IMG/VR virus record: IMGVR_UViG_3300022555_000014
Direction: 5' to 3' (one strand)
Origin: an uncultured virus (IMG/VR IMGVR_UViG_3300022555_000014)
Taxonomy: Duplodnaviria > Heunggongvirae > Uroviricota > Caudoviricetes
Length of the DNA: 64,000 nt
The stretch's first letter is position 1, and the number at the start of each line of letters is the position of its first letter. Position numbers and translations under genes: made by a program. The notes below the pieces were generated by a model. That model was not told where the DNA came from, did no database searches, and saw only the letters and a program-made list of their open reading frames with translations. Shown piece by piece: positions 5,163-45,689 of the stretch.

Positions 5163-5222
5163 TGGTTTAAACTGTGTTCAGAATTTCTGTAAAAAGTTGT
5201 ACTGAACACAGTTATCTGAGAT

Positions 5223-5265: not shown

Positions 5266-5305
5266 CTTTGATTCAAATTTTCTTTAGCACTAATAAAGAT
5301 TTTTC

Positions 5306-5334
5306 TTGACTTGGGTTATTGCTAATGTTACACT
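5306..5334 (+). promoter_or_regulatory. sigma70-type promoter for HNH gene 1
   Basis: TTGACT-17 nt-TACACT with an extended -10 TG, 35 nt upstream of ATG 5370. Confidence 0.7.
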
Positions 5335-6980
5335 AAGAAAGTTTAAAAATTTGGGTTAGGAGTTTTACTATGCCGTTTACTAAACCGATAATTAACAAAG
5401 AAGTTGATAACGTTAAGAAGTTAATTGAATCTCTTGAAGCTCCTGGAGGGGACAAGGTTATCCTTCACAAAGTTAAAAGTAACATCAAGAACTCGGCTAA
5501 GCGTAAAGCCAAAGGACGTAAGCTTGTTGTAACCAAGACTAAAAAGACCAAACCTGTTGTAACTGAATCCAAGCTTACTGGTTCTGAACTTTGTTTGGTG
5601 CATCCTGAATTGATGGATTCTAAGTATAATCAGGTGTTTCAGTTAGAGAAGGAAGGTAAAGTTGTAATCAGAGAGGATTTAGGTAAAGTTTTCAAGGTAC
5701 AATTCCCTAGCGGAGAATTAGTAGAACTCGGTTTAAGTGTTAATGGTAGTGGATACCGTCAATTTGAAATTGACGGAGTTCAACGTATTTTAGTTCATAG
5801 ACTACTTGCTCAAAAAGTTAATGGACCGTGCCCTAAAGGCTTAATAGTACATCATAAAACCATATTAAAACGGACAATCGCGGAGTTAATCTAGAATTTG
5901 CTACTACGTCTAAGAACGTTCAAGAATCTGCAGCTCGTCCAGAAGTTAGGGAAAATATAAGTAAGTCCAAGTTAGGATTTCGCCCACATCGCAGGTATTT
6001 AACTGACATTGAAGCCGACGAAGCTGAAGCAATGTATGCTACTGGAAAATTTACAATAAGAAGCGTTGCTGAACATTTTGGCGTTAGTGTTGATTCTATG
6101 GGTAATTTACTGAGAGGGAAAAGCTATAAAACACGCAGGTCTGATGAGAGTATTCCTACCCCTATTAAGTCTAAAACTAAAATAAAAGACTTACAAGGTA
6201 CCCCCGAACAGATAGAGATTTTTACGTTCTTTGTAAAATCTGTAAATCGTGGAGATTTAATTCTTACTGAAGACGGTCGTTGTTTTAGTAAGTCGGGTAA
6301 CTGGTTAGGTTCTCGAACTCCTACTGGCTATACTACGATTAGAGCAACCTATCAAGGTAGGACTTATAGGATATTACTACATAGGTTTATGCATTTAATT
6401 TTTATAGGAGCCATTCCTAAAGGCTGGGTAGTTGATCATAAAGACGGTAATAAATCCAACAATCACTACTTAAACCTAGAAGCCATTACTCATGGTGAAA
6501 ACACTAGACGTGCTAGGGGGTTAGGTCTTGTTGATTCAAGCAAAGATAGTTTTGCTAGAGTAGGTGAAAAGAATACTAGCAGTAAACTAACTGAGCGTGA
6601 AGTAATAGAAATAAAGATAATGTTAGCGCAAGGTTACTCTAATACAGAAATAGCCAAGAAGTTTAAAGTTGGTAGGTTTACGATTAACGCTATAGCTAAC
6701 GGTGAAACATGGTCTCATGTTGGGACTAAGCCTTCTAACTTGTGTTCCTCTTGTACTCATGTTAATGATCATGTTACAATTTACGATCAGACTTGGACTT
6801 GTTCTGACTGTGGTGAAACTCACGACTACGCTGAAAACAACAAGAAAAATACCGAGAGGTATCCAATCAAACGTATTGTGTTTGACAGGTCTATACCTGA
6901 ATACAACATTACTTTGGCTAAGTGGTTAAAAAAGGCTAAAGGTTACTCTAACCCTAAAATATCAAAAATTATCAAGTGTA

Positions 6981-7130
6981 GTCAAGCTACTCCGCGCTAA
7001 AGCGACGGAGCTTGCCCGCAGGGGGCTTTTGCCCAGGACGGCTGACACGCCCTGGTGGTTTCCTACCTAGGAGTTTGTTAACACGGTCGGGGTCTCCTGG
7101 GTTTAACCGCTTGCAGGTAGCCTTTTGCCT
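6981..7130 (-). ncRNA. Putative TnpB omegaRNA/reRNA scaffold (5' boundary uncertain)
   Basis: GC-rich right-end region overlapping the 3' end of tnpB and ending ...GCGCGGAGTAGCTTGAC, the established position of TnpB omegaRNAs. Confidence 0.6.
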
Positions 7131-8405
7131 CCAACGACCTAAATACAGGTCACGAATGTTAACCGCACCGTTAGTATCGGCGTGGGTTTCGTGACCACAC
7201 TTCTTACACTCGAAAGTCTCACCCTTACGGTTGTTCTTAGCCGTGTGACCGCACTTGGAACACCGTTGGGAAGTGTAGGCTGGGTTAACAAAGGCTAGAC
7301 GGATTCCTAACTCCTGAGCTTCCTCAGACAGAATCCTCCTAAACTTAGCGTAAGGCCAACCTGTTTTGGTGAAACTAGGGCTGTGTTTTAGGTCTTCTAA
7401 GACTAAGGTTCCAGTTGGCTTCGCTACTGATGAGAGGAGTTCATTGGCTACCTTGTAGCACAACTCTTCCCAATAACTGTCTATACGGTGGTCTAACCTC
7501 CGTAAGTGCCTTTCGAGCGAACGGGTACCCAACTGAACCTTGGTAGGCTGTTTACCTGCTTTAACTAGAATCTTATCAGTATCTTTTAGAACTAGATTGG
7601 TAGCTTCCCTTGCTTTTAGAGCGTCAGCTATTTCTTTACGACGCTTTTGAGCCTTGCGAATCAGTTTTAGTAACCTAACATCGGTATAAAGCATGCCGTT
7701 AGAATCGACGGCAAAGTTGGTACGGCCTAGATCGACTCCCAAAGCCTTCTGTTTGTTCAACTGTAGGTCTAGAATCGGTGGAATAGCTTTAACAAAAGTC
7801 AGGTGGAGGTAGAGTCTACCCTTCTTGTAGACTAGGTTAGCACCTCCGGGAGTCCAAACCATCTTAGTTTGAATCGGGTTGGTGGGATCAACCCTACCGT
7901 ACTGCTTCTTGTAAAGAGCCTGAGAATCCGAGAACTTCAGGTACTTCTTAACAGTAAACCGTTTACGGTAGTACTCGGGCATAGTGAAGCTAAACTCTTT
8001 ACGACCAGTGGTAGTTAGTAGTGAGACGGTGTTCTCTTTGAAGTCTAGAGTCATTGACCTAATGTCGTACCCTACTGGAATCAGGTCATCGAAGTGTGGC
8101 TCTTTGACTAATCTACGTTGCTCCTTGGGTAGATTGGAATCATTCTTGATCACAGCGTAAGCAGCTTTACCTGATTCGATGGCAGAGTGGTAGACACTGA
8201 CTGCTATCTGAGCAGGCAAGTTGAACTTGTCCCGTAGCTCGTAGTAGTTAGAGTCGTGGACCTGCTTCAGACCGAAGGTCTTACGCTTCCAAATCCTATG
8301 CATAGTCCAGTTACAAGCGTCCCGGTAGACTCCAAAGAAGTCTAGGATTGGGTCGTTAGTAGCCTTAACACTATAATCTAAGGCTATGATAGCAGTACGA
8401 GACAT
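6987..8405 (-). CDS. tnpB: RNA-guided endonuclease TnpB
   Basis: RuvC-I LGVDLG, RuvC-II LVLEDL, Zn ribbon TSQRCSKCGH...FECKKCGH, RuvC-III HADTNGAVNI. All three catalytic acidic residues are present. Start placed at ATG 8405 (MSRTAII); GTG 8447 is possible. Confidence 0.93.
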   Translation of the reverse strand: MSRTAIIALDYSVKATNDPILDFFGVYRDACNWTMHRIWKRKTFGLKQVHDSNYYELRDKFNLPAQIAVSVYHSAIESGKAAYAVIKNDSNLPKEQRRLVKEPHFDDLIPVGYDIRSMTLDFKENTVSLLTTTGRKEFSFTMPEYYRKRFTVKKYLKFSDSQALYKKQYGRVDPTNPIQTKMVWTPGGANLVYKKGRLYLHLTFVKAIPPILDLQLNKQKALGVDLGRTNFAVDSNGMLYTDVRLLKLIRKAQKRRKEIADALKAREATNLVLKDTDKILVKAGKQPTKVQLGTRSLERHLRRLDHRIDSYWEELCYKVANELLSSVAKPTGTLVLEDLKHSPSFTKTGWPYAKFRRILSEEAQELGIRLAFVNPAYTSQRCSKCGHTAKNNRKGETFECKKCGHETHADTNGAVNIRDLYLGRWRQKATCKRLNPGDPDRVNKLLGRKPPGRVSRPGQKPPAGKLRRFSAE

Positions 8406-9203
8406 TAGCTGTGATTTCTTAAGAGCCACGGGAAAGTTTCCTTTCACTTACCTGACTCTTAAAATTAGGTTCGAACCAAAAGTCGAAACAAGAAAAGTTT
8501 AGATTCTGGGTTTGGTTCGAATTAGTATGGAGTTGGTTAGGATTTGCTAGGAGTTTAAAGAACATGACTCTTTTGGGTTATTAGTGCCAAAGATTCTTTG
8601 GCGAGAATAGCCGAGTTGGGCAGAGGAATTCAGGGAGTCTATTTCAGAGCTTTCCTCTCCGCCCTAAAGGGCTGGAGCTTCCAGCTCGAATTTCAGTGAG
8701 AGTTCTGTTGATAAAATGCTAACGGGTGAGTGTAACTCTCATATTGGACATGTCACCTCTGATATTTGTAATGTATGTGGTACTAAGCACGAGTATTTGA
8801 TGCCCTATACCAAAGAGTTTCTATGCTCCGGTTGTGGGGCTCGTCATGTTATAACTGACAACAACGCCAAGAACGAAGTTTACTACACTATGTACAAAGA
8901 AAAGTATGGCAAACCTATCCATCCGGCCTACTATCCCAAACTCCGTCAGAAATCGTACTACACGAATCAACCTAAACTACGTCGCCAGTCTAGGTCTTCC
9001 ACCAAAAAGACGACAACTCCACTAGCCTAAATTTCTACCAATTAACTAAATAATCTAATTTTAGTTATGGTAAACTCTTTAACTAGAGTTTACCAACTTT
9101 TCTGTTTCTAATCTACCCAATAAAACTGGACGGGTTGTCATAACCCGAACTCTAGCTGCGTGCTGGAGACCTCACAAACAATTATCTAACGGGAACTTTA
9201 ACC

Positions 9204-10943: not shown

Positions 10944-11038
10944 TCCTGTAATTCTGTAAACTGGTAAACCTGTAGTCCTGTAAACTGGTAATTCTGCAAG
11001 CCGGTAAACTGGTAATTCTGTAAACTGGTAATTCTACG
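10935..11038. repeat. Degenerate 8-bp tandem repeat (ATTCTGTA/AACTGGTA/GTCCTGTA), about 13 units, starting in the last codons of 9204..10943
   Basis: 8-bp periodicity read directly from 10935. Confidence 0.85.
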
Positions 11039-31719: not shown

Positions 31720-31798
31720 CCTTACGGTCGGGACTAACATTCAATCTTTGTCTCTCCCTCACTTTAGCCATTCACCCTAATTGGAAAAGGTCTATACC

Positions 31799-32938
31799 AT
31801 GTCGTTTCGGACGAATATTCCTGCGGTTGATTCGGAAATTGGCGTTCAATTAGCCAACCGGATCGGTGTTTCAATTCAGGCTTACAATTCAACTTTGCAA
31901 GCCTTAGCAACGACTTCTATTAGCACAGCGTCAACTAACGCTAACGGAGTCTTTGGTTCTACTGACGGCTCTACGGTAACGTTTATCACGTCTCCTTCAT
32001 TTAGTACGTTGAAGGTCGGATCACTGTCAGGCGTGGTTAAGGCTACATCTGGTAACCTGTCTGGTGGTGCTTCGGCTTCTGATCTTTCTAACGGTGTTTC
32101 TGGATCCGGTGCGGTTGTTTTAGCAGCAAGTCCCGCACTAACTGGAATCCCTACAGCGCCGACCGCTTCTAGCACCGATAGTTCTACTCAGATTGCTACT
32201 ACTGCATTTTGCCAATCAATTGTAGGTACTGCTGTTACATCAGCAATGGTTTATAAAGGTACTGTTGATATTACTGCTGCCCCACCTTCTCCAGAGCAGA
32301 CTGGGTGGTGTTGGAGGGTTGCTACAGGCGGTACTCCTAACGCCGGATATTCATTTACATCAACTGTAACCACGTGTAATATTGGTGATTTAGTAGTATA
32401 CAATGGTACTACCTGGGATCATTTAACATCTGGTCTTTCGGCCGTCAATTCCGGGGACAATATCGTCGTTACGCCGACTGGTAACTTATCTTACTCAGTC
32501 GCTTTAACAAGTTCACCTGCTCTGTCTGGTAACCCTACTGCACCGACTCCTTCTAGCACCGATAATTCTACACGAATTGCTACTACCGCGTTTGTTCATG
32601 GTTTGAACCTAGTTGCTAATACTTTAAGCCTACAAGCGGTTACTCTGGTTACAGCTTCCGGTTCTTATACAGCTACTAGCTCCGACTACCTCATCATTGT
32701 TAATAAGACTGCCAGTGAAGCAACTACTATCAACCTGCCAGCGGGTACTGATAACCGAGTTTTCTTGATCAAAGACGGTAAGGGAGACGCTTCTACACAT
32801 AACATAACCATCACTGTGAATAGTACCGATAAGATTATGGACACTGCTTTGTCTGGTCTCGGTGGCTCTACTGTTATCCAGTACAATGGTGAGTCTGTCA
32901 CGCTAGTTTACAAGTCTGGAGTCTGGTATCTAATCTAG
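31799..32938 (+). CDS. Tail fibre protein
   Basis: Start ATG 31799 (MSFRT). Two fibre repeats, a 'VYKGTVDITAAPP' module and the same C-terminal domain as 29422..31719. Confidence 0.82.
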   Translation: MSFRTNIPAVDSEIGVQLANRIGVSIQAYNSTLQALATTSISTASTNANGVFGSTDGSTVTFITSPSFSTLKVGSLSGVVKATSGNLSGGASASDLSNGVSGSGAVVLAASPALTGIPTAPTASSTDSSTQIATTAFCQSIVGTAVTSAMVYKGTVDITAAPPSPEQTGWCWRVATGGTPNAGYSFTSTVTTCNIGDLVVYNGTTWDHLTSGLSAVNSGDNIVVTPTGNLSYSVALTSSPALSGNPTAPTPSSTDNSTRIATTAFVHGLNLVANTLSLQAVTLVTASGSYTATSSDYLIIVNKTASEATTINLPAGTDNRVFLIKDGKGDASTHNITITVNSTDKIMDTALSGLGGSTVIQYNGESVTLVYKSGVWYLI

Positions 32939-33019
32939 CCAATAATTCAATAATTCAATACAGTGGGTGGTGGTTAAAATAGACTACCACCCACCTACTT
33001 CTCGGAAAGGGTTTCTAAT

Positions 33020-34744
33020 ATGTCATTCAAAACAGATACTGTAGCAGTTGATTCTGAGATTACCAGCAAGATAGGCGTTTCAGTTCAAGGGTACAATGCT
33101 AAACTCAATTCAATATCCAATATCTCATTATCTGGTGCTTCTGGGACTACTAACGGACTAATCGGTTCTACTGACGGTACTTCTTTAGGTTTGATTTTGA
33201 ATCCTGTTTTGACCAACGTTACTTTGAACGGTACCTCTACTTCTACCACACCAACAGTAACCGATAGTTCTACCTCTATTGCAACTACTGCCTTTACAGT
33301 TAATTATGTCTCAGGGGCTTTATCTAGCTATGCCCTACTTAATAGTCCAGTTTTTACTGGTAACCCTAAAGCTCCAACTGTTACCTCTACTGACAATTCA
33401 ACTAACTTAGCTACTACGTCGTTTGTTCAAACTCAAGGTTTCATTACCTCGTCTGCACTAAGTCCGTATGCACCGTTAAGTTCTCCTACTTTTACAGGAT
33501 TACCAAAGGCACCGACTGTTACTAGTACTGATAATTCAACTAGTTTAGCGACCACCGCTTGGGTCACTAGCTGGGTTAATGGAAAAGGTTATTCAACTAC
33601 GCCTACATATCTCTATGTTGGATCAAACACAGGTTCGCCAACTACGCCAACTGTTGGTACTGTCCAAGGACAAGTGGCAATAGGCGACAGTGCGATTGTA
33701 AGTAGTTCTGGTACAGGATCAATAGCAATTGGTACGGCTGCTAAGGTTGGCGGTAGTGCTAGTAATGCGGTGGCTCTTGGCGGTAATGCTTATTCGGCAG
33801 GTAATCTTTCTTTTTCAGCGTGTACAGGCAATTCTACGGGAAATTTTACTTACGGGGCGTTTGCTAATAATAGCGTGGCGCTAGGGTATCAAGTTACTGT
33901 TAACGGTCAATACGGTAACGTTGCTGGTGGTTTTAGCAACAATATTACAACTAACGGTACAGGTGGAGCTATTAGCGGCGGTCAGCTTAACACCGTCGAT
34001 GCCAGCAACGCCAATATATCTGGTGGCTACGGGCATAACGTTCACGCCGGTCATAGTTCGATTTCTGGAGGGACCAACTGTTCAATTAGTGCTGGACCAA
34101 CTTACTCTACTATTTGTGGTGGGTATTTTAACACAATAACCGGTGGTGTTGGTAACGCAGCTATTCTAGGTGGGTCTAACAATACACTTAGTGGAGGTAA
34201 CGCTGTTGTTTTAGGTGGTGCTAATAATACAGCGTCTAACACCTACACTGTAGCAATGGGATTCCATTCAGTTGCTAGCAATTACGGTCAGGTAGCTTAT
34301 TCAACTGGGTACACTTGTAATAACGGGCTAGGGAACAGCCCGACCAATTCTCAAACGTCACAGTATTTGTTACGTACGGCTACTACTGACGCCAGTGCTC
34401 ACGAAGCTTTTTTAGATAATGGTTCAGCACGAATTGCAGTGGGGACAGGGCAAGCTCTTACTTTTGAAGTAACAGTTTTAGTCCATGATTACACTACTCC
34501 TGCCAACAACGCTGTAATAACTACTTTACAACCAGGATTAGTTTACAACAACGCTGGTACTTTAAGTTTGGCCTCACCTACTTGGAACAGTGCAGTAGTT
34601 TTAAACTCCTGGAGTGTTAGCGGTCTAGCAGTTACTGTTGGAACTAACAGCAATAATTTGACGTTTAGCGTACAGGGTCCTACCTCTGGTTCTGACACCC
34701 TGTATTGGAACTTACGTGTTAGAACTGTTGAGACTACCCAATAA
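33020..34744 (+). CDS. Tail fibre protein with Gly-rich YadA-head-like beta-roll repeats
   Basis: N-terminus paralogous to 31799. Fibre repeats plus 'SIAIG/AVALG' and 'ISGGxxN' repeats. Confidence 0.8.
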   Translation: MSFKTDTVAVDSEITSKIGVSVQGYNAKLNSISNISLSGASGTTNGLIGSTDGTSLGLILNPVLTNVTLNGTSTSTTPTVTDSSTSIATTAFTVNYVSGALSSYALLNSPVFTGNPKAPTVTSTDNSTNLATTSFVQTQGFITSSALSPYAPLSSPTFTGLPKAPTVTSTDNSTSLATTAWVTSWVNGKGYSTTPTYLYVGSNTGSPTTPTVGTVQGQVAIGDSAIVSSSGTGSIAIGTAAKVGGSASNAVALGGNAYSAGNLSFSACTGNSTGNFTYGAFANNSVALGYQVTVNGQYGNVAGGFSNNITTNGTGGAISGGQLNTVDASNANISGGYGHNVHAGHSSISGGTNCSISAGPTYSTICGGYFNTITGGVGNAAILGGSNNTLSGGNAVVLGGANNTASNTYTVAMGFHSVASNYGQVAYSTGYTCNNGLGNSPTNSQTSQYLLRTATTDASAHEAFLDNGSARIAVGTGQALTFEVTVLVHDYTTPANNAVITTLQPGLVYNNAGTLSLASPTWNSAVVLNSWSVSGLAVTVGTNSNNLTFSVQGPTSGSDTLYWNLRVRTVETTQ

Positions 34745-35053
34745 TGTTACACCTGTTACTGGCGTTTGTCAAGGGTATTGTTAGGTGCGCGTGTTTGGGT
34801 TGAACTGTTAAGGCCAACCCTCAGGGTGAAAGTAGTCAACAGAATACAAGTTTAGCTAGTTTCTAATACCATAAAACGGACAAACTAGGCAAGTTAATAG
34901 GGCTGATTTCTAAAACAGTTGTTAGTAATGCAGTGTAAAATAACGGTGGGTTGGTGGGTTGGATTATTCGGTATTTTAGATAATTCTTAATTTTTATTTG
35001 TAAGCGTAGAAGAGTGCCGAGAAGTTGAGTCGGCAGAATAGGTAGTTAATAAC

Positions 35054-35702
35054 ATGACGGAAAACGGCATTATACTAAGGCAAATTGGTACGTCGTTAAA
35101 CTCATTCAAGATTCGACATCGGACAATTTATTCGGGGACTGGTGCCACGGTGCCGGACCCTAACATGGGTGTGTACGGTGATTTGTATTTTAATGATGTT
35201 AATGTGTACCAGAATATTAACGCGGTTTGGGTACCGTTCGTTTCTACCAATTCGATTGGTGACATTATTACTGCCGCTATTAACGCACAGGTACCCGGAC
35301 TGTTGACTAGCACAGTCAGTCACAACATTACTAACTTAGTCATCGCTGATATTATTCAACAAGTACCGGGTATGGTCAATAGCGTAGTTAGCCAGAACAT
35401 CTCTAATTTGGTCAGTGCTGAGATAGGACAAATAGTACCGAAGTATCAAATTGATGCTGCCTACGCGGTACCGTACTCGATGGTGTTGATTCAACTAAGC
35501 CACCTCCCGATAAACCCTAGCCAGATAGAAGTTTTGTACAACGGTAACGCTTTAATCTATAACGTTGACTTCGTCATTGCTAATAATGTTAACGTTATAG
35601 CCAGTTCCAGCTTGAATCAAACCTTCAACGGTGTGGGCCAGGACGGAGCGGGGGTTTAGTAGCACAGATTTTGTGCAGGCTGCGTATCAGTATCACGGTT
35701 AA
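35054..35702 (+). pseudogene. Fibre-associated structural protein with a +1 frameshift near the 3' end
   Basis: The ORF stops at 35659 (DGAGV*). Removing one G from the G-run 35650-35654 gives DGAGFSSTDFVQAAYQYHG*, matching the paralogous end DGLGFSNSDNISAYYEY* of 37565..39757. Confidence 0.75.
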
Positions 35703-35777
35703 TTGTGGTAAGCTAGGTGATAATTTTTATCTAGCTTATTTAATTTTAATAAGGTGTTAATAAGAAAGGTAAAAAGT

Positions 35778-37568
35778 ATGCACACCTCTACAGCTCTCCA
35801 AAAAATTCGGCGCACTAATGTTAAAGATAGTAAGAAGCTCCGCACCGCTGACGTTACTGATGAATCTCTACCAGGATTACAAAAGTGTCTGGATAATCCT
35901 GACTTGATACCTAACAAGAATGAACTTGAGATTTTTAAACTATTTGCTCTTAAAATTCTAGAATGTAATGTGGTACTTGGAAAAATATACAGAAACTACC
36001 CTACAGGTAAAACTCTAGAAATAGGTACAGCAGTATCCGGCGGTTACTACCAGTTAAAGCTATCTTATAATGGTAAAACTTTATTTGCTAGAGTTAACAG
36101 AATAATTGCTCAATTATGTTTCGGTCCTTGCCCTGAAGGGTTCGTAGTTCATCATAGGGATCACAACAAACTAAACAACTCTATTGATAACCTAGCTTTT
36201 GCTACAGATTCTGAAAATAGTAAAGAATCTTCCTCTAGAGAACATATTAAAGATATAATGCGCGTAAAAAGGAGTGGTGTAAACTCTCCTACTAGTAAGT
36301 TGACTACGGCTACTAAGAATAAAGCTTTTAAGTTAAAAGAAACTGGAACCTATACTAATAGAAAAATAGCTAACATACTTAACGTGTCTGACGCTGCCAT
36401 AAGTATGTTATTTAGTGGTAAGACACACAAACATGACGTTAAAAAGGTTCAGAACTCTGCTGCGATTATCCCTAAACCTATCATCCCAGTAGCTGATTTA
36501 GATAAACTTGAAGGCGAAGCTATAGAACGAGATCGTTGGCTTCTTTCTCTAGTAATATCAGGAGAGCTGCGGGTTACTAGAACAGGTAAAATATACCGTG
36601 TTAGTTCCGGTAACTGGTTAGGTTCTGTTGGTAGGACAGGTTATGTCCAAATTAGTTTACGCGATAAAGACTCTGGTAAGCCCTATACCTTTAAAGCGCA
36701 TCGTTTAATTTACCTGTGCTTTAAAGGTATAATACCAGAGGGTAAGGTTATAGACCATATTGATGACAATAAGTCTAATAACCACATTGATAATTTACAA
36801 TTACTAACGTCTAAAGAAAATACGCAAAAAGCTCACGATACTGGTTGCTTCGACAAAGCAAAAGCTTCAATGCGAAATATGGGAGAGAATAACAGTAGGT
36901 CTGTATTGACCGATGCTATTCTTGATGAAGCTAGACTTATGATAGCTTCTGGCACATCAGTTTCAGCCACAGGTAGGATATTAGGCGTTAACAGAGCTAC
37001 TTTACAAGACGCTATTTGTGGTAAGTCTTGGAGACATAGGGAAAAAGACCCGTCGATAGTGTTTAAACGCCCTAAAGTTGTACACGAAGAAGATAAAGTT
37101 ATTCTAATTCGGTACGAGTATAGGACCCAAAAGGTAAGCTACTCCGAATTAGGTAGGCGTCATGATATGCATCCTGTAACTATACGTAGAATATGTATTA
37201 GAGAGATACATAAATGCGTACTAGAGGTTGCGGCTAATGTTTGTTCTAAGTGTGGTACTCGTAAAGAAAACCTCAGCTACTATGATAAAGAATGGACTTG
37301 CGACTGCTGTAAGACTCTTCATAACCGTCAAGAGAACATTGACAAGAATGAAGCTTATTTTGAAGGTTATAGGAAAGCTTTAAAGCGGCTACCTTCTCCT
37401 GATGAATATTTACGTCTTCGTAAGAAAGACTACGCCTCTAATCGTAGGGTGTATAAGAATAATAAATTACAGCCTATGTGTGGTAAGATTAAAGGTTTAC
37501 GTAGGTTCGTACCCTCCTCTCTATTGGTGAAATATAACCATCTCAAAACAAGGACTAAATCGTCATGA
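35778..37568 (+). CDS. Double-HNH endonuclease with HTH domains and a Zn ribbon
   Basis: HNH motifs VHHRDHNKLNNSIDNL and IDHIDDNKSNNHIDNL, three HTH-like segments, and CSKCG...WTCDCC. Start at ATG 35778 behind GAAAGG. Confidence 0.85.
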   Translation: MHTSTALQKIRRTNVKDSKKLRTADVTDESLPGLQKCLDNPDLIPNKNELEIFKLFALKILECNVVLGKIYRNYPTGKTLEIGTAVSGGYYQLKLSYNGKTLFARVNRIIAQLCFGPCPEGFVVHHRDHNKLNNSIDNLAFATDSENSKESSSREHIKDIMRVKRSGVNSPTSKLTTATKNKAFKLKETGTYTNRKIANILNVSDAAISMLFSGKTHKHDVKKVQNSAAIIPKPIIPVADLDKLEGEAIERDRWLLSLVISGELRVTRTGKIYRVSSGNWLGSVGRTGYVQISLRDKDSGKPYTFKAHRLIYLCFKGIIPEGKVIDHIDDNKSNNHIDNLQLLTSKENTQKAHDTGCFDKAKASMRNMGENNSRSVLTDAILDEARLMIASGTSVSATGRILGVNRATLQDAICGKSWRHREKDPSIVFKRPKVVHEEDKVILIRYEYRTQKVSYSELGRRHDMHPVTIRRICIREIHKCVLEVAANVCSKCGTRKENLSYYDKEWTCDCCKTLHNRQENIDKNEAYFEGYRKALKRLPSPDEYLRLRKKDYASNRRVYKNNKLQPMCGKIKGLRRFVPSSLLVKYNHLKTRTKSS

Positions 37569-39757
37569 GTCAGCTTCAAATCAAACAGATTGCTAATTTG
37601 CAGTCTAGTTTAAATCTTAAAGCACCACTCGCTTCTCCGGCCCTCACTGGTAACCCTACAGCACCCACTACCTCAGCCGCTGATAATTCTACTACTTTGG
37701 CAACCACAGCTTATGTTAAAAGTTTGGCTGGTGCAGCGAATCCTTTGATGGACGCTTCTGTAGCAGCGGTTGGTACGTCATATCTGTACAGTAGGCAGGA
37801 TCACCAACATCCGTCCGATTCTAGCCGGGCTCCTCTAAATTCTCCGAATCTAACAGGTTCGCCAACAGCACCTACTCCTACCGTTACCGACAATTCAACA
37901 GCGTTAGCAACGACCGCGTTTGTCCGTTCTTTGGGCTATTTAACTGGTAACCAAACCATCACTTTGACTGGTGACGCCACTGGTTCCGGTACTACTAGTA
38001 TTGCTGTCACACTGTCAACCGTTAACGCTTCAACTGGCACCTTTGGTTCTAGCTCAGTGGTTCCGGTTATCACTACGAATAATAAGGGCTTAATCACCAG
38101 CGTCGCTTCTGCCGCCATTACCCCCGCTTCTATCGGAGCCGCCCCACTAAATAGTCCGGCATTAACTGGAACGCCAACAGCACCGACTCCTACCGTCACT
38201 GATAATTCTACGAATATAGCTACCACTGCTTATGTAGTTTCGAAGAACTACATCACAGCAGCTGCTTTAACGACCTATGCACCTCTAAATTCTCCTGCAC
38301 TGACGGGGTCGCCAACAGCACCAACCGTCACCTCAACCGATAGCTCAACAGCCATTGCTACTACTGCTTTCGTTGCTAATGCTGTAATTGCTGAAGATGC
38401 TAAGGTTCTGCATACGACAGGAAATGAAAGCGCCTCTGGTACCAAAACATTTACCACTTCTGTGGTCATTCCTACTCTGACTGCTACTGATAACTCCACT
38501 TTTGCGGCGAGTACTGCTTTTGTTCGTAGTTTGGCTTCAAGCACTTTGCCACTTATGGACGCTTCGGCAGCGATTGGCTCCTCAATCTACTACGCCAGGG
38601 CTGATCATTGTCATGCAACCGACACGAGTAGAGCACCACTAGCGTCTCCCGCATTAACAGGATCGCCTACTGCACCTACACCTTCTACGGGAGATTCTTC
38701 TACACTACTCGCCACAACCGCGTTTATTAAAAACCAGGGATACGCTACATTAGCCTCCCCGACTTTCACAGGCACGGTTCAAGCACCTACCGTTACCTCA
38801 ACTGATAATTCTACTAATGTGGCTACAACCGCATGGGTTCGCAGCTTAGGGTTGTCCACTCTAAATTCTCCTAATTTCACTGGTACACCAACTGCGCCTA
38901 CACCAACTGCTGGCGATAATTCTACTGATATTGCTACTACTGCTTTCGTGACCAATGCTCTTAGCACGGCCTTAACGGCGGCTATGATTTACAAGGGTAC
39001 AATTGACGTTACTACAGCGTCACCACCAGCATCTCCAGCTACTGGTTGGATGTACAGGAATACGGGTACCGGGGCTCCGAAAAGCGGATGGTCGTTCAGT
39101 ACCACTGTTACAGTGATCGATGCAGGCGATTTCGTCACTTTCAATGGTACGACTTATGATAGGACAGCTAACGTAGAACCGAGCGTTTCGGCCGGTAATG
39201 GCATAGTCGTTACCCCTACTGGAGACACTTCCTACCAAGTAGCCATTTCTGCTAGTTACACTGGTGGGACGAGCATTACTACACTAGGTACAATCACAAC
39301 GGGTACATGGTCGGGAAGCACTATCGGGGTAGGTGTAGGCGGTACTGGCCTCACGTCTATTGCTAGTAATTCTGTGCTAGCCACTGGTTCCACAGCTAAC
39401 ACTATTGTTCCTGTTGCTCTAGCTTCTGGAACCATTCTTGGTAATAATGGTTCTGGTCCGGCTGCTCTAACTGCTGCTCAGATGCGTACACTTATGAACG
39501 TACGTACTGCTACTGACAGTGCTGCCGCTACATCAGGAAGCATGACGCTACTGACCTTGACGAATACTCCGTTGACCCCTTCTTCAGTAGAAGTCACCTT
39601 CAACGGTCTAGTCCTTCAGTACACCACTGACTACACAATTTCTGGAACTACTGTTACTGCCACTTCAAGCCTCAACACTGCGTATGGTGGCTTAACTGGT
39701 AGTGACGGACTTGGATTCAGCAATTCTGACAACATCAGTGCGTACTACGAATATTAA
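37565..39757 (+). CDS. Modular tail fibre protein
   Basis: Seven full fibre repeats, 'YSRQDHQHP/YARADHCHA' motifs and a 'YKGT' module. ATGA overlap with the HNH gene. Confidence 0.87.
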   Translation: MSQLQIKQIANLQSSLNLKAPLASPALTGNPTAPTTSAADNSTTLATTAYVKSLAGAANPLMDASVAAVGTSYLYSRQDHQHPSDSSRAPLNSPNLTGSPTAPTPTVTDNSTALATTAFVRSLGYLTGNQTITLTGDATGSGTTSIAVTLSTVNASTGTFGSSSVVPVITTNNKGLITSVASAAITPASIGAAPLNSPALTGTPTAPTPTVTDNSTNIATTAYVVSKNYITAAALTTYAPLNSPALTGSPTAPTVTSTDSSTAIATTAFVANAVIAEDAKVLHTTGNESASGTKTFTTSVVIPTLTATDNSTFAASTAFVRSLASSTLPLMDASAAIGSSIYYARADHCHATDTSRAPLASPALTGSPTAPTPSTGDSSTLLATTAFIKNQGYATLASPTFTGTVQAPTVTSTDNSTNVATTAWVRSLGLSTLNSPNFTGTPTAPTPTAGDNSTDIATTAFVTNALSTALTAAMIYKGTIDVTTASPPASPATGWMYRNTGTGAPKSGWSFSTTVTVIDAGDFVTFNGTTYDRTANVEPSVSAGNGIVVTPTGDTSYQVAISASYTGGTSITTLGTITTGTWSGSTIGVGVGGTGLTSIASNSVLATGSTANTIVPVALASGTILGNNGSGPAALTAAQMRTLMNVRTATDSAAATSGSMTLLTLTNTPLTPSSVEVTFNGLVLQYTTDYTISGTTVTATSSLNTAYGGLTGSDGLGFSNSDNISAYYEY

Positions 39758-39809
39758 GCCTTAACACGTATGTTTAGCAGCCCTAAACTATCACAATAAG
39801 CCTAAAAAT

Positions 39810-39847
39810 AGACCCACTGTTCAATTTTTGATTGAACAGTGGGTCTT
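39810..39847 (+). terminator. Hairpin / probable terminator
   Basis: AGACCCACTGTTCAAT-TTTTG-ATTGAACAGTGGGTCT. Confidence 0.8.
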
Positions 39848-39889
39848 CCTATAGTTGCAAAATAAATTTTCAGATTCTGAACTTTTCCC

Positions 39890-39918
39890 TTGACTCACCC
39901 AGAAAATTTCTATATACT
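39890..39918 (+). promoter_or_regulatory. sigma70-type promoter for HNH gene 3
   Basis: TTGACT-17 nt-TATACT, about 40 nt upstream of ATG 39958. Confidence 0.75.
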
Positions 39919-39957
39919 GACTCATAGTTAGTAGCTCTTAATAAGAAAGGTAAAATT

Positions 39958-42054
39958 ATGCGTACAATTGCACGTTTAAAGTCGGTTAAACGTAAAGCTT
40001 CAGGTTTGAAGAACCGCAAGGTCAAAGTTAATTCGGTAAAAGAAGATAAGTCACTGTTAGCTGGTAGTAACTTCAAAGTTTCAGTATGTGATGAAACATT
40101 TGTCGAGCCTTCTCTTGAAGAAATTCTCCAAAGCGGATTAAAGGGTACACTTTTAGTAGAAGAGTTGCAAAAGTACAATAAGTCTGGGTTTCTTGGTGTT
40201 TCAAAATGCCTTGCTATTCCAGATTCTGTAGTACCTAAAGAGTACGACGCTATAAAGTTAGTGTTTACTGGAGTTATTGAAGTTTTCCCTGAAGTAGGGT
40301 TAATGTTTAAAAATTTCGTACATGGAAAACGTCAGGAAATAGGGCGCTCTATAAACAGGGGAGGTTATAAAACTTTTGCTAATGTTGGCAGAGACGGAAA
40401 GAAGACTATTGTGGTAAGTAGGATCATTAAACAAGTTGTGGACGGACCAGTTCCTGAGATAATGATAGTTCACCATAAGGATCATATTAAAACTAATAAT
40501 TCTATTGATAATTTAGCATTTTCTACTCAGTCAGCACACATACAAGAATCCTCTGATCGTCCAGAAGTAAAGGACGCTCTTTCAAAAGGTAGAAAGGGTA
40601 TTAAGCACAGTAATAGGGCGTTCACCGACACAGAGGCTGATGAAATTAGGCGAATGCATTACGAAGGTGGTTTTACTGGTGCTGATATAGCAATTATTAA
40701 AAATGTCCATTCTTCCACTATATGTAATATTATTAGGAACGATGATCATTACATTACACCAAAGGATTCTAGAAAACCGCCTAAACGGACACCTTCTCCA
40801 GTAACCAAGATAGCAGACTTAAAAGGAACTCCTGAGCAAGTAGCTAGAGATTCTTGGTGGTTACAGCAGGTAAGGGCTGATAACGCAAGGGTACCTAAAG
40901 AAGGTGGTGGTATTTATAATGTAAAAACAAAAAATTGGTTACAAGGAGGAGTATCTAAAGGTTATAGGTACATATCTTTAATTAACGATAAAGGTGAGTT
41001 TATAGCTATAGCTGAACATAGACTAGTTCATCTAGTATGGATTGGCCCTATAGGTGAAAAAGAGGTGATAGACCATAAAGATTTAAACACCTTAAATAAC
41101 CACATAGATAACATACGAGCGGTTACCCGTTCTGATAATACACAACTAGCCTATGATACAGGTTGTTATGATAAGGAACAGAAAGCCTTCTCTGGTAGGG
41201 GAGAAAAGTGCTATGCTAGTAAGTTAACTGAAGAGAAGGTAATTGAAATAAAAGTACTACTAGCTCAAGGAGAAACTCATAGGAAAATTGCTAAACAGTA
41301 CGGAGTTAGCATCTCAACCATTGGCTACATAGCTTCTGGTAAGCTTTGGCCTGACGTAGGAACTAAACCTTCTAATCTATGTTCTAATTGTGATCATGTC
41401 AACGAACATGTAACTATTCAAGACAGGTTCTGGACGTGTACTAGTTGTGGAATAAATCACGAGCGCGCTGAAAACAATCGTAAAAACACTGCCCGTTTTC
41501 CTATTATTATGTCTAAACCGTACTGCAAGTTAACCGAAGATAAAGTTATTTTAATGCGGTTTTTATACGCAACAACTAATCCAAATTATTCTTCTCTAGG
41601 TAGGCAGTTTAATGTTAAATGCATGACAGCAAAACGTGCTATTGATGGAGTCACTTGGTCAGAAGTTGGCAAAGTATCATCGGACGTTTGTTCAGTCTGT
41701 GGTACCAAGAACAACCTGTGCCACTATGCTAACAAAGTTGAGTTCATGTGTTCTTGCTGTCACACCCACCACATCAAAACTGACAATAACGCTAAAAACT
41801 ACCAGCAGTACGATGAGTACAAAGCTGCTAAGGGTAGACTAATAGCTCCTGATGAGTATCTACTACTGATCCAAACTGACTACACCGCTAAGCAACAACC
41901 TGCCCTTCCCAAACCCACCCAAGCCAAACAGTACCGTCAACCAAAAGGCGGAAAGGTCAAAGGGATTAAACGTCCAACATCCCAAACCTTGACTCAACTG
42001 TTCCAGTTGTCTAAAAAGTCTAAGTCACCCCAGGACGAAGTATCTAACACATAA
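39958..42054 (+). CDS. Double-HNH endonuclease with three HTH domains and two Zn ribbons
   Basis: VHHKDHIKTNNSIDNL and IDHKDLNTLNNHIDNI HNH motifs, 'KLTEEKVIEIK...IAKQYGVS' HTH, and CSNCDH...WTCTSCG and CSVCG...CSCC ribbons. Confidence 0.87.
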   Translation: MRTIARLKSVKRKASGLKNRKVKVNSVKEDKSLLAGSNFKVSVCDETFVEPSLEEILQSGLKGTLLVEELQKYNKSGFLGVSKCLAIPDSVVPKEYDAIKLVFTGVIEVFPEVGLMFKNFVHGKRQEIGRSINRGGYKTFANVGRDGKKTIVVSRIIKQVVDGPVPEIMIVHHKDHIKTNNSIDNLAFSTQSAHIQESSDRPEVKDALSKGRKGIKHSNRAFTDTEADEIRRMHYEGGFTGADIAIIKNVHSSTICNIIRNDDHYITPKDSRKPPKRTPSPVTKIADLKGTPEQVARDSWWLQQVRADNARVPKEGGGIYNVKTKNWLQGGVSKGYRYISLINDKGEFIAIAEHRLVHLVWIGPIGEKEVIDHKDLNTLNNHIDNIRAVTRSDNTQLAYDTGCYDKEQKAFSGRGEKCYASKLTEEKVIEIKVLLAQGETHRKIAKQYGVSISTIGYIASGKLWPDVGTKPSNLCSNCDHVNEHVTIQDRFWTCTSCGINHERAENNRKNTARFPIIMSKPYCKLTEDKVILMRFLYATTNPNYSSLGRQFNVKCMTAKRAIDGVTWSEVGKVSSDVCSVCGTKNNLCHYANKVEFMCSCCHTHHIKTDNNAKNYQQYDEYKAAKGRLIAPDEYLLLIQTDYTAKQQPALPKPTQAKQYRQPKGGKVKGIKRPTSQTLTQLFQLSKKSKSPQDEVSNT

Positions 42055-42109
42055 CCACCTCGCCCACTAGTCCACTAGTCCAGAAGTCCTTGGACTAACC
42101 TGCCCTATA

Positions 42110-42149
42110 AGAAAATCCTTGGTGCTGTTATTTAGCACCAAGGATTTTT
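42110..42149 (+). terminator. Intrinsic terminator
   Basis: GAAAATCCTTGGTGCT-GTTATTT-AGCACCAAGGATTTTT. Confidence 0.88.
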
Positions 42150-42208
42150 CTGGTAAATTTCGTAACTGTACAAACTCCACAACTACCTTGGACTAAAAGG
42201 AATCAACT

Positions 42209-43099
42209 GTGAACCGTAAAGAAACTGAGAACCAAAGCAAACTTATCCATGCTCAATCTAAGGAGTTAACTGGGACTCCCAAGAAAGCTAGAGAGTTTTT
42301 CGTTAAAGACGGCGGCGTACACCCAAATTACGTTGAAGCTGATAGACTACAAGAGGGACGTAATAAACTTCCGTTCTATACCTACGCAGCACAGCAACCG
42401 GCTGAACAAACCGCTTATTTTGAATCTATAGAACCTGAAAAATTAGCAGAAACGGATCAACAACCTAAAGAGACTAAACCGCCAATTGAGTACACAACTA
42501 CTAAATTATTCAAGCAGATAAAGTACCACCGACACCAAAAGTCTAAAGTACAAAGGTTCCACCTCTCTACTTTCACAGGTTCTATCTTCACTGTTGTCTT
42601 CTTACCAACGTTACCAGTAACCAAAGCCTTTTACGATTCTCGGAGTAAAACTCTTTTTATCTCAGGTAACCCCACCTTACTCGCTAGCAAGACTTACCTT
42701 GAAACACACTTTATAGATTTCCTGTTCTTTGAATTACAACATACTGACTTCCTATCCGTATCTAAGTCAATCCACCAACTGGAATCCAAGTACCTTGTGG
42801 AAACCTCTAGGTTAAGTCACTATAAGTTCTCTTACGAACAAATTACTAGTCTTCTACCTACCACTAGATTTACAGATTCTGTGTTAACCGAACTACTTTT
42901 AACTCATTATCCAGTTGAAGGTCCTTACCTATTAGACTTCAATAGTGTTTTACACAACGTACTTAGCAATACAGACCTAACCGTATCTCCTACTTGGCAA
43001 ACAGTTAAAGGTAAATTTCCTAATATTGATGAAGTAGCAACCTTACTGATCTACGCTATTCACAAAATTATAGATTCTATTTTATCTCCTGACTATTAA
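42209..43099 (+). CDS. Hypothetical protein, apparent degenerate paralog of 43127..43972
   Basis: AAGGA RBS plus GTG. Colinear motifs YDSRSKTLFI / FFELQH / EQIT / SPTWQ. Confidence 0.6.
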   Translation: MNRKETENQSKLIHAQSKELTGTPKKAREFFVKDGGVHPNYVEADRLQEGRNKLPFYTYAAQQPAEQTAYFESIEPEKLAETDQQPKETKPPIEYTTTKLFKQIKYHRHQKSKVQRFHLSTFTGSIFTVVFLPTLPVTKAFYDSRSKTLFISGNPTLLASKTYLETHFIDFLFFELQHTDFLSVSKSIHQLESKYLVETSRLSHYKFSYEQITSLLPTTRFTDSVLTELLLTHYPVEGPYLLDFNSVLHNVLSNTDLTVSPTWQTVKGKFPNIDEVATLLIYAIHKIIDSILSPDY

Positions 43100-43126
43100 C
43101 AAACAGTTTAAAAGGTAAAATTAACA

Positions 43127-43972
43127 ATGACAAACCTATCCGAAGTCCTATCTAACATTGACGCTTACTTAAAAACATACGCAGTCACAGCAATAAAAGT
43201 TAACACTGACGACTTGTTATTTGTTAACATTACTTTTGCTGAAATCGAACATGACTGGCCTCATGCTAACTACACAGACAACAATCCTAGAGTCTATCCT
43301 AAAGACGAGAACCAGGCGTTACAAGTAGCTTTAGTAGCAAATATTCATTCTAAAGAGATTGCTAGTGGTGTGTACAACAGTAAGAATAAGGCGATTTTAA
43401 TAACTTACCTTCCTAGCAAGTCGTGGGTTGATATAAAAGACCGCTTGTACGGTGTCTTATGTCACGAATACATGCATTATCTTCAAGACCTTTCCAATTC
43501 TAACATAGCCAAGGCTAGAGAAGCCTTAACTGCTGTAGACGAGAGGCTTGATAACTTTGAAGAATCTGAACGACTCAAAGCTACAAACGTTAAAGAGCTT
43601 CGTAAGCGTAAACGTCTAGCCAAGTCTGAATTGTGGCGAATATACTACTTCAACACTCTAGAGAAGTGTGCTCATGCTGGTCAAATAACGTTTGAGTTAG
43701 TTTATAAAGCGTTAAACACGGATGAGATGTTTCGTCCTCGTTCAATCAAAGAAGCTTGTCGTAGACTCCTACTACCTACTACCGATTTCAATAAAATGGT
43801 GGAAAAGTCTGATGTCTGGCAAATGATTGCCGAACGAATCCCACCGTCTTTAAAAACGGCTTACCTGTCCTTGATAATTAAAGAGAGTCGGCACCTACTT
43901 TCGTTTGTAATTAGCACTGAATCTAACGATCCTGCCAAAGTACCTGTTTCGGAAATTACACCTAAAACTTAA
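43127..43972 (+). CDS. Putative zincin-like metallopeptidase (HExxH)
   Basis: 'GVYNSKNKAILI...LCHEYMHYLQ...YYFNTLEKCAH' gives HExxH plus a downstream Glu. Confidence 0.6.
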   Translation: MTNLSEVLSNIDAYLKTYAVTAIKVNTDDLLFVNITFAEIEHDWPHANYTDNNPRVYPKDENQALQVALVANIHSKEIASGVYNSKNKAILITYLPSKSWVDIKDRLYGVLCHEYMHYLQDLSNSNIAKAREALTAVDERLDNFEESERLKATNVKELRKRKRLAKSELWRIYYFNTLEKCAHAGQITFELVYKALNTDEMFRPRSIKEACRRLLLPTTDFNKMVEKSDVWQMIAERIPPSLKTAYLSLIIKESRHLLSFVISTESNDPAKVPVSEITPKT

Positions 43973-44112
43973 TTTTAACTAAGGGGTCCAGCCTGTCACC
44001 TCGCTACCAAGTACAGGCCAAATATTCCAAAACGTGTGCTTAGCGCACCAACAAGCCGTTGATTCCGTTGTATTAGGACTCGAACGGGCTTTTCAAAAAG
44101 GATAACAAAACT

Positions 44113-45591
44113 ATGCTACAGATTAAGCAAATTAGTGGGTTGACTGGACAATTAGCCTCTAAAGCTCCCCTAGCTTCGCCAAGTTTTTCAGGGGTACCAC
44201 AAGCTCCGACTCCAACTAGCACGGATAGCTCTAACACAATCTGTACTACAGCTTTCGTACATAATTTAAATTACGCCACTGATTCATCGGTTGTCCACCT
44301 TGCCGGGTCAGAAACGATTTCGGGTGCCAAAGTTTTTTCTGTGAGTCCTAGCGTCCCAACCCTCACAGCTACCGACAATTCAACTTCGGCGGCTTCAACG
44401 GCTTTTGTCCATGCCTTAGCCAGTTCCTCTAACCCAGTAATGAACGGTACAGCAAGTCCCGGTTCCTCTGTATATTTCTCAAGGGGGGATCACGTTCACG
44501 GCTATGACACGAGTCGTGCTCCAATTGTTTCTCCATCCTTCACAGGAAACCCCACAGCACCGACTGTGACTTATACAGATAACTCAATGTCATTGGCAAC
44601 AACTGCCTTCGTGCAAAGCCAGTACCAGTTGGTTGCTAGTGTTTACGCTCCTATAAATAGTCCGAATTTCACCGGTACTCCTACCGCACCAACACCAACT
44701 TCCACTGACAATTCAACTAAGCTGGCTACGACTCAGTTTATTAAAAATTTAGGCTACTTAACAGGTAACCAAAATATTACATTAACAGGTGACGCTTCAG
44801 GTTCAGGTACTACTAGTATTGCCGTTACCTTACCCACTGTTAACGCTACAACCACGGAGGTTGGCTCCAGTTCGGTTGTTCCGATTATCACTGCTAACGC
44901 TAAAGGTTTAGTTACCTCTATCTCCAGTGCTACAATTACCCCGGCTGCCATAGGCGCCGCTCCGCTTAATAGCCCTAATTTAACAGGTAACCCAACAGCA
45001 CCTACTGACGCAGCAACCGACAACTCAACATCAATTGCTACAACGGCGTGGGTTCGTTTAGCGATACAAGGCACCCAAACCCTCTGGGTGCCGTCAGCAG
45101 CTATGATACCTCGAAAGGGCAACGGTTGCTCGTCTTTGATCAAAACTGAAATATCGGCTGCACAGCCTAACATCAATTCTTTAAACTTTGACCCAACGAC
45201 TCAACAATACTGTCAGTTTAGTGTTGCTTTCCCTAAGTCTTGGGACAACGGGACTATCCAGTACGAGATTTTTTGGTGCCACCCGGCTACAACTACTAAT
45301 TTTGGTGTGGTTTTTGGTCTTTCAGGGGTAGCTATATCTCCAGCACAGTTAATTGGTACAGCGTTTGGTACTGAAGTTGATACTACCTCTACTGGTGGGA
45401 CCACATACCAGATGTACACAACTGGTGTTTCAGCCGCTCTTACTATAGGCAGCAGTCCTGCCAACGGTGATGTCTGTTGGTTCCAACTTACGAGGGTTTC
45501 GGCTAACGCATCTGACACTCTGGCTGTTAACGCCATGCTGCTAGGATGTAAGCTATATTACAAAACTAATGCTTTGAACGACGGGAGTTAA
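44113..45591 (+). CDS. Tail fibre protein
   Basis: The N-terminus 'MLQIKQI' is paralogous to 37565. Fibre repeats and a distinct C-terminal domain 'TLWVPSAAM...FDPTTQQYCQFSVAFPKSWDNGTI'. Confidence 0.85.
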   Translation: MLQIKQISGLTGQLASKAPLASPSFSGVPQAPTPTSTDSSNTICTTAFVHNLNYATDSSVVHLAGSETISGAKVFSVSPSVPTLTATDNSTSAASTAFVHALASSSNPVMNGTASPGSSVYFSRGDHVHGYDTSRAPIVSPSFTGNPTAPTVTYTDNSMSLATTAFVQSQYQLVASVYAPINSPNFTGTPTAPTPTSTDNSTKLATTQFIKNLGYLTGNQNITLTGDASGSGTTSIAVTLPTVNATTTEVGSSSVVPIITANAKGLVTSISSATITPAAIGAAPLNSPNLTGNPTAPTDAATDNSTSIATTAWVRLAIQGTQTLWVPSAAMIPRKGNGCSSLIKTEISAAQPNINSLNFDPTTQQYCQFSVAFPKSWDNGTIQYEIFWCHPATTTNFGVVFGLSGVAISPAQLIGTAFGTEVDTTSTGGTTYQMYTTGVSAALTIGSSPANGDVCWFQLTRVSANASDTLAVNAMLLGCKLYYKTNALNDGS

Positions 45592-45689
45592 TAGCAGTTA
45601 AGTCATTTTGACGGGTGACTTGTATTAAAAATCACCAGTTTAACCTAACAAGAAAATAGCCTTTCTAAGAAACACAAAAGGAGGCTACA

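Follow-up and report, generated by a model that had tools for sequence, protein, structure and literature searches.

The homing-type endonucleases I-HmuI, I-HmuII, I-BasI, and I-PfoP3I are single-HNH-domain enzymes that nick DNA on one strand (PMC3428280). Other phage HNH enzymes, encoded beside terminase genes, carry a zinc ribbon and are site- and strand-specific nicking endonucleases (Xu and Gupta, 2013; PMC3592412). A ribbon of another type is found in the RNA-guided nuclease TnpB: in the ISDra2 protein, the TNB domain spans residues 327–359 with C331, C334, C351, and C354 as zinc ligands, the RuvC domain resumes at residues 360–375, and the catalytic residues are D191, E278, and D361 (PMC10097598). 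Here we describe three paralogous genes, A, B, and C, that join the first of these systems to the last. They lie in a 64,000-nt stretch of DNA (the window, whose positions are used throughout) from an uncultured virus of the Caudoviricetes (IMG/VR record IMGVR_UViG_3300022555_000014). An earlier note on this DNA had taken the encoded proteins to be chimeras of an HNH endonuclease and a TnpB module, and comparison of the whole of protein B with the PDB agrees: only four sequences pass E 0.01, and these are three TnpB-type chains and I-HmuI. We hold, with moderate confidence, that the genes form a free-standing family of I-HmuI/HNH_3 homing-type phage endonucleases that reuses a fragment of TnpB as a DNA-binding module.

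Tandem HNH_3 endonuclease genes

The three genes were found as open reading frames where the earlier note had placed them, with C in pieces, and the domain order that it had proposed, HNH-HTH-HNH-HTH-(ZnR1)-HTH-ZnR2 (HTH, helix-turn-helix; ZnR, zinc ribbon), is recovered by alignment of the paralogs and in an AlphaFold2 model of B:

35778..37568, + strand: paralog A, intact double-HNH_3 endonuclease gene (596 aa from ATG; 604 aa from an upstream GTG at 35754)
36072..36230, + strand: A, HNH core 1 (..VVHHRDHNKLNNSIDNL..SEN..)
36675..36839, + strand: A, HNH core 2 (..VIDHIDDNKSNNHIDNL..KEN..)
37230..37349, + strand: A, C-terminal TnpB-type ribbon ZnR2, with Gln at the RuvC-III Asp position
39958..42054, + strand: paralog B, intact double-HNH_3 endonuclease gene (698 aa; basic, disordered ends)
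40402..40551, + strand: B, HNH core 1 (..IVHHKDHIKTNNSIDNL..SAH..)
40993..41157, + strand: B, HNH core 2 (..VIDHKDLNTLNNHIDNI..SDN..), which aligns to I-HmuI residues 18–105
41368..41487, + strand: B, internal TnpB-type ribbon ZnR1 (aa 471–510), with Ala at the RuvC-III Asp position
41677..41799, + strand: B, C-terminal TnpB-type ribbon ZnR2 (aa 574–614), with Thr at the Asp position
5370..9030, + strand: paralog C, pseudogene with the same architecture, in the pieces 5370–5894, 6032–7000, and 8716–9030
6731..6850, + strand: C, ribbon ZnR1, with Ala at the Asp position
8755..8874, + strand: C, ribbon ZnR2, with Thr at the Asp position

Protein B has the full order, HNH1-HTH1-HNH2-HTH2-ZnR1-HTH3-ZnR2; in A the order is HNH1-HTH-HNH2-HTH-HTH-ZnR2, with ZnR1 absent. 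A gene-call artefact was considered for A and B and rejected, since both are long intact open reading frames with conserved catalytic and zinc-binding residues. The other paralogs are 33–36% identical to A in the alignment, and in an exhaustive phmmer search B is 36% identical to A and 41% identical to the middle piece of C. The AlphaFold2 model of B, built from a 54-row alignment (mean predicted local distance difference test score, pLDDT, 73.4; predicted template modeling score, pTM, 0.43), places the units at these residues:

about 100–211: HNH module 1
224–259: HTH1
292–402: HNH module 2
425–460: HTH2
474–513: ZnR1
527–563: HTH3
578–625: ZnR2

The N-termini of A, B, and C are rich in lysine and arginine (in B, aa 1–76, encoded at 39958–40185 and with pLDDT <50 in the model), and all three have a basic tail at the C-terminal end.

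By domain content, motif, and HTH units, the three proteins can be assigned to the I-HmuI-type HNH_3 endonucleases. Pfam HNH_3 (PF13392; cut-off 24.8 bits) matches two stretches each in A (112.1 bits) and B (65.4 bits) and scores 26.3 and 48.0 bits with pieces of C. There are further Pfam matches to HTH_7, HTH_23, and HTH_38, and three HTH units are present in the model of B. Matches at E 6e-56 and 8e-38 come from PHROG HNH families, and at E 3e-29 and 5e-16 from PADLOC homing-endonuclease models. Compared by structure, the full B model has one significant match, to I-HmuI (1u3e_M; 29% identity over 107 columns, E 7e-5), which is also a sequence match of B in the PDB (E 6e-4), the D-H pair of HNH2 and the later Asn being kept in the alignment. 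In the HNH motif, His is the general base and Asn or His a metal ligand, as known from I-HmuI and the colicins; the HH/DH ... NN ... N/H motif positions are retained in both HNH cores of A and in both of B.

Two HNH modules in one chain are not what sets these proteins apart. The exhaustive phmmer search of B, made against 1.84 billion cluster representatives, gave 24,449 matches at E ≤0.001 and 7 at E ≤1e-30, three of which are the window's own proteins; the next matches (E 1.6e-34 and weaker) cover HNH2-HTH only. When 20 chosen matches (the 11 best-scoring and 9 picked by length or extent) were scanned with Pfam, 13 had two HNH_3 stretches, including the window's own P0004. We also counted domains locally in 150 listed phmmer matches plus two Bacillus phage proteins: among the 147 non-self database matches, 33 have two HNH cores, 92 have one, and 22 have none, and a CxxC...CxxC ribbon occurs in none of the 147, being present only in the window's three proteins. 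The Bacillus phage relatives (Riley gp222 and Chotacabras gp217) align over HNH2-HTH-HTH and have no ribbon. The best non-self matches of B, at E 1e-34 to 1e-26, are metagenomic tandem-HNH_3 proteins. On these counts, tandem HNH_3 is a real, unnamed, sizeable, and fairly common metagenomic class, whose members may make double-strand cuts with a single chain. What stands alone is the ribbon fusion, seen in this phage and in no other of the relatives searched. The earlier note had named a common annotated family of this architecture as an outcome that would count against it, and this applies only in part: the double HNH is seen in 33 of 147 relatives, the ribbon fusion nowhere else.

Megablast of 35754–42054 against 50,697 phage records gave no match, and tblastn of B against 50,697 phage records hit 229 of them, none covering ≥80% of B (best 38%). 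A word-based search of B among 5.8 billion proteins returned only B itself, and a pattern scan found no relatives of B in viral contigs and, for the TnpB resident in paralog C (see below), none in genome or viral contigs. Scanning metagenome contigs for the fiber gene yielded one locus (L003), 100% identical to 31565–45754 (14,190 bases) and apparently the window's own record. No description of the fusion was found in open-access papers and bioRxiv, nor, among the papers listed, one of single-chain tandem HNH_3 enzymes, and the main text of a TnpB survey contains no occurrence of 'HNH' (PMC10691335).

Zinc ribbons homologous to TnpB

There are five ribbons in total (one in A, two in B, two in C), and in the alignment each comes right after the conserved 'W..VG' that closes an HTH unit. 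The three ribbon peptides quoted in the earlier note are present letter for letter; the second, C-terminal ribbons of B and C had not been quoted. Although their pairwise identity is only 25–64%, all five retain the four Cys that serve as zinc ligands, the two helix-capping Asn, a His, and a Lys. ZnR1 may have been lost from A or gained by B and C: A has 'KDPS' where the ribbon of B and C begins 'KPS', a hint of loss, but the A ribbon is about equally distant from the ZnR1 and ZnR2 types.

When 177,635 distinct PDB sequences were searched with a profile built from the five ribbons, TnpB/Cas12-type chains filled the top 8 rows: an AI-designed RNA-guided nuclease (1.3e-9), ISDra2 TnpB (8.3e-9 and 8.4e-9), LaTranC (2.8e-7 and 3.6e-7), Cas12m (2.9e-5 and 3.6e-3), and a mimivirus TnpB-like protein (9.3e-4). 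The best unrelated protein, a zinc finger, comes at E 0.011, so the resemblance to TnpB that had been noted earlier goes far beyond chance, the ribbons scoring far better against TnpB than against generic four-cysteine (C4) fingers. Among ribbon families, PF07282 is matched by all five ribbons and the next family by three. The NCBIfam model IS200_TnpB matches B in two stretches (E 3.1e-9), the PADLOC models Cas12u4 and Cas12f match at 5e-9 and 1.5e-8, and E-values of 5e-6 and 7e-6 are reached by the PHROG families for TnpB transposases. When 5.8 billion proteins were searched from word seeds, which gave 324 candidates, a single match came from outside this genome, the TnpB P0154 (E 3.2e-6), with which single ribbons score 17–32 bits each; the A ribbon is identical to P0154 at 19 of 42 positions, the same number as with its own paralogs. 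A model of a ribbon (55 residues, pLDDT 79.8) superposes on ISDra2 TnpB (8h1j_A) at 1.0 Å over 43 columns with 42% identity and a template modeling (TM) score of 0.70 in Foldseek, and the top 20 rows listed by Foldseek (ranks 1–22) are all TnpB, Cas12, or Fanzor chains. The ESM Atlas returned TnpB clusters when searched by structure (TM 0.75); when it was searched by features, the best value was 0.82, under the meaningful level.

The likeness could in principle be convergent or generic, with ordinary C4 ribbons that happen to share the spacing of TnpB. The segment is short (about 41 aa), the PF07282 scores of the ribbons (13–21 bits, best 20.7) are under the curated cut-off of 26.3, and Foldseek gives the ribbon model no match as good as E 0.001, the values being only about 0.01, as expected for 55 residues. 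Against convergence, the gap between TnpB (8e-9) and the best unrelated zinc finger is wide, the match to P0154 survives correction for 5.8 billion sequences, identity reaches 42–45%, and PHROG, ESM Atlas, PADLOC, and NCBIfam agree on TnpB. The match also runs beyond the fourth Cys, through counterparts of H358, R360, E362, N363, and N367 in the RuvC-helix region of ISDra2 TnpB, which are not part of a generic ribbon. Convergence is close to refuted, and these comparisons show that the ribbons are homologous to TnpB.

They also delimit what was captured. The alignments to ISDra2 TnpB span residues 327–368 with the five-ribbon profile and 327–374 with the whole of B, which identifies the captured piece as the whole four-cysteine (CCCC) TNB domain, placed in TnpB between RuvC-II and RuvC-III, plus the RuvC helix after it, about 48 residues corresponding to approximately 327–374. 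In the column of the RuvC-III catalytic Asp361, the five ribbons have A/A/T/T/Q, in line with the earlier observation that this position is replaced. No match to PF01385 (OrfB_IS605) was found in A or B in the Pfam scan, and NCBIfam TnpB models match only at profile positions 315–355, with 36.5 bits against a cut-off of 425. The WED, REC, and RuvC parts of TnpB hold the guide RNA. With the Asp lost and the rest of RuvC, WED, and REC absent, the fragment can neither serve as a nuclease nor bind guide RNA as TnpB does.

A ribbon that keeps a TnpB-like role, binding RNA or single-stranded or unwound DNA, would make the HNH enzymes RNA-assisted or structure-specific. This proposal draws on the genuine TnpB origin of the module, on the presence in the same gene cluster of a TnpB element with its own guide-RNA region, and on the TNB domain of Cas12, which contacts the heteroduplex distal to the protospacer-adjacent motif and helps to load DNA into the active site, according to the structural account (PMC10097598). 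However, the captured part amounts to about 48 residues of TnpB with no OrfB_IS605 match, the ribbons come after ordinary HTH DNA-binding modules, and no Rfam family is found in the window (0 matches at gathering thresholds). Lacking the parts of TnpB that hold RNA, the proteins are unlikely to be RNA-guided, and the RNA binding raised in the earlier note finds no support, only the TNB ribbon and RuvC helix having been captured. We regard this proposal as very improbable.

The interrupted paralog and the fiber cluster

Paralog C is broken, as had been recognized earlier, and the causes found here are a short A run and an insertion. In HNH1, the AAAA run at 5856–5859 is one A short of the five needed and shifts the frame: the protein reads ...IVHHK, and the homologous NHIKTDN... 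then continues in another frame. A 5,286-base contig with this frameshift and zero differences over 3500–7037 is present in runs of two studies, one run possibly being the window's source. The second lesion is an insertion element of about 1.7 kb in HTH3:

about 6981–8701, − strand: TnpB-only IS200/IS605-type element splitting C, with approximate ends
6987..8447, − strand: resident full-length tnpB (486 aa), not the ribbon donor

The ends are approximate because the trinucleotide agt stands at both junctions. The resident TnpB scores 124.1 bits with NF040570 (cut-off 100) and 80 bits with PF07282. Near-identical subterminal hairpins lie in the same orientation at 6990–7010 and 8657–8677, and nowhere else in the window is the hairpin matched, where chance alone would give 0.02 matches. 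No tnpA was seen within the element, and the RNA fold of 200 nt at the 3' end of tnpB has a z-score of −0.94, from which nothing is concluded. When contigs of four freshwater or lake runs were mapped on 3500–11000, the interior of the element had 2–2.7 times the depth of its flanks and variant copies, and two other flanks joined at 6979 and 6981; the extra depth, variants, and other flanks imply that further copies exist in the same communities. No joint skipping paralog C or its element was seen among the contigs over this interval. With a full-length TnpB, paired hairpins, and more than one copy, the insertion has the features of an IS200/IS605 TnpB-only element.

The ribbon of the resident TnpB is weakly like the HNH ribbons, and the protein was considered as their donor and rejected: its scores of 3–7 bits compare with 17–32 bits for P0154, and the pairwise E is 0.007.

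The window is part of a large freshwater phage: its proteins are also recorded on contigs of up to 254 kb, and the public runs that match it are lake and freshwater metagenomes from three studies. Most of it is filled by a very large cluster of tail-fiber genes (209–56717), in which a 95–111-nt repeat, encoding the motif APL.SP.FTG.PTAPT...DNST..ATTAFV, is present in at least 48 copies across a dozen or more genes, including those for proteins of 1467 and 1750 aa. Paralogs A, B, and C are free-standing, all on one strand, and each between tail-fiber genes. The intergenic gaps around them are 118–207 nt, except that the stop of A overlaps by 4 nt the start (37565) of the following fiber gene. 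The genes directly upstream of A (35054–35659) and B (39500–39757) share at their C-terminal ends a homologous domain of 70 aa (40% identity, E 7e-8), which the gene upstream of C lacks. The shared domain fits either duplication of a cassette of fiber end plus HNH gene or insertion at a preferred site.

This setting bears on whether A, B, and C are selfish genes or domesticated phage enzymes, which might start recombination among fiber genes, degrade the DNA of the host or of competitor phages, or take part in DNA processing, with the ribbon as a further DNA-binding part. Domestication would suit the common strand of the three copies within the fiber operon, the overlap of A with the next gene, the shared upstream domain at A and B, and the many repeat copies as a possible recombination substrate; the paralogs are moreover old (about 35% identity), yet A and B are intact. 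Pointing the other way are the assignment of the family to homing-endonuclease models, the decay of one of three copies, which is usual for selfish endonuclease genes, and the absence of the shared domain upstream of C. We think domestication unlikely, though worth keeping in view.

Several other features of the window were observed. A perfect 28-nt tandem repeat (unit CTAAGACGTGAGCTTAGGTGAATATCTT, at least 5 copies) occupies positions 1–190, upstream of the first fiber gene. Directly after the fiber gene at 9204–10943 is an array with 8-nt periodicity (10933–11036; units such as TAATTCTG, TAAACTGG, and TAGTCCTG), and contigs from two runs have 11 extra letters at a back joint there, which suggests copy-number variation. 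Giant proteins are encoded at 13291–18657 (1788 aa) and 24467–28057 (1196 aa), with internal repeats of about 138 and 153 nt, respectively; the first matches only PHROGs of unknown function, and the second has no PHROG match. Inside the fiber cluster, the protein encoded at 45690–46808 matches PHROG 'regulator of chromosome condensation' families (RCC1-like repeats; E 2e-33).

Proposed mechanism and comparison with known systems

Each protein has two complete modules in tandem, each of a β-sheet, HNH_3, and HTH. In the reading that we favor, in which A, B, and C are homing-type endonucleases that reuse a TnpB fragment, the array of DNA-binding modules at the C-terminal end was lengthened with a piece taken from a tnpB gene. 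Transfer would have run from TnpB to the HNH gene: outside a RuvC fold there is no reason for the RuvC helix that has been kept, and the ribbon is universal in TnpB whereas the fusion is confined to one phage. Capture would probably have come about through insertion of an IS200/IS605 element into such a gene followed by deletion; paralog C shows that such elements land in these genes. The position of the ribbons directly after the 'W..VG' end of an HTH unit makes an added DNA-contact or spacing module in the recognition array the most economical role, and the ribbon is probably an extra DNA-gripping part. Following the HTH, it may serve as a sequence-independent or low-specificity module for gripping DNA or for spacing, which would lengthen and stiffen the footprint of the protein on its target much like the zinc fingers and NUMOD modules of modular homing endonucleases. 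Since the single-domain relatives are nickases, two intact HNH modules per chain could cut both strands: the two nickase-type sites, both apparently intact in A and B, would take one strand each and produce a double-strand break.

Several points weigh against this reading, in addition to the ribbon scores under threshold given above. DNA binding by the ribbon, nuclease activity, a nick as opposed to a double-strand break, and homing are all things that we infer. The function of the TnpB zinc finger is called unclear in the TnpB survey (PMC10691335). The TNB domain is moreover distant from the heteroduplex in the structure of ISDra2 TnpB (PMC10097598), so that for the donor domain a DNA-binding role of its own is not established. 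The inter-domain geometry of the B model is unreliable (pTM 0.43), and the model is silent on whether the HNH sites face both strands. The insertion element of C is on the opposite strand to C and is not the donor of the ribbons; it exemplifies the proposed route of capture without proving it. Among the phage records, viral contigs, and metagenome contigs searched, neither a related phage nor an allele free of the HNH genes turned up.

A fuller account joins these parts: the TNB ribbon would be an autonomous and portable module for handling DNA, cut from an IS200/IS605 tnpB that had landed in a homing gene and then duplicated, and it would position two HNH nickase sites on the opposite strands for a double-strand break by one chain. 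We offer this combination tentatively and would not bet on it. If it is true, no earlier natural example would exist of a protein-guided nuclease built with a sub-domain of an RNA-guided one, and it would give a direct clue to what the TnpB/Cas12 zinc finger does. The ribbon fusion is a natural experiment on the role of that zinc finger, brings a further kind of DNA-binding module into the modular homing-endonuclease toolkit, and shows insertion elements and homing-type genes colliding within one phage fiber cluster.

Compared with known systems, A and B resemble I-HmuI, I-HmuII, I-BasI, and I-PfoP3I in the HNH_3 beta-beta-alpha-metal core, in the small β-sheet before it, and in the HTH modules after it, but those enzymes have no zinc ribbon, whereas A and B combine a pair of HNH modules with one TnpB-type ribbon (A) or two (B). 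Closer in their nuclease part are the metagenomic tandem-HNH_3 proteins (e.g., P0006, P0007, P0008, P0009, and P0010), which share the doubled HNH_3-HTH arrangement and a similar linker between the modules; they are shorter (about 290–420 aa), lack a C4 ribbon, and are unnamed, one being labelled 'HNH endonuclease/NUMOD4 motif'. The terminase-linked HNH nickases likewise are phage HNH nucleases with a zinc ribbon at the protein end, but they belong to another HNH subfamily with its own [CxxC]2, stand in a cos/terminase context, and have other ribbon types, and the text available of that report describes no TnpB origin (PMC3592412). On the TnpB side, the ribbons align to residues 327–368/374 of the ISDra2 protein (PDB 8H1J/8EXA), keep its four Cys, and comprise its TNB domain and RuvC helix alpha4; unlike ISDra2 TnpB, A and B have no WED, REC, RuvC-I, or RuvC-II, D361 is replaced, and they are not members of the TnpB family. 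The exapted TnpBs, Cas12 effectors and nuclease-dead TnpB regulators, are, as far as the survey text goes, similar in being reused outside transposition and in sometimes having lost RuvC catalytic residues (PMC10691335). In those cases the whole RNA-guided protein was reused, the only kind of TnpB reuse described so far, whereas here one small sub-domain, the zinc-ribbon piece, is kept under selection inside an unrelated, protein-guided nuclease, and its isolated retention suggests that this piece can fold and work alone.

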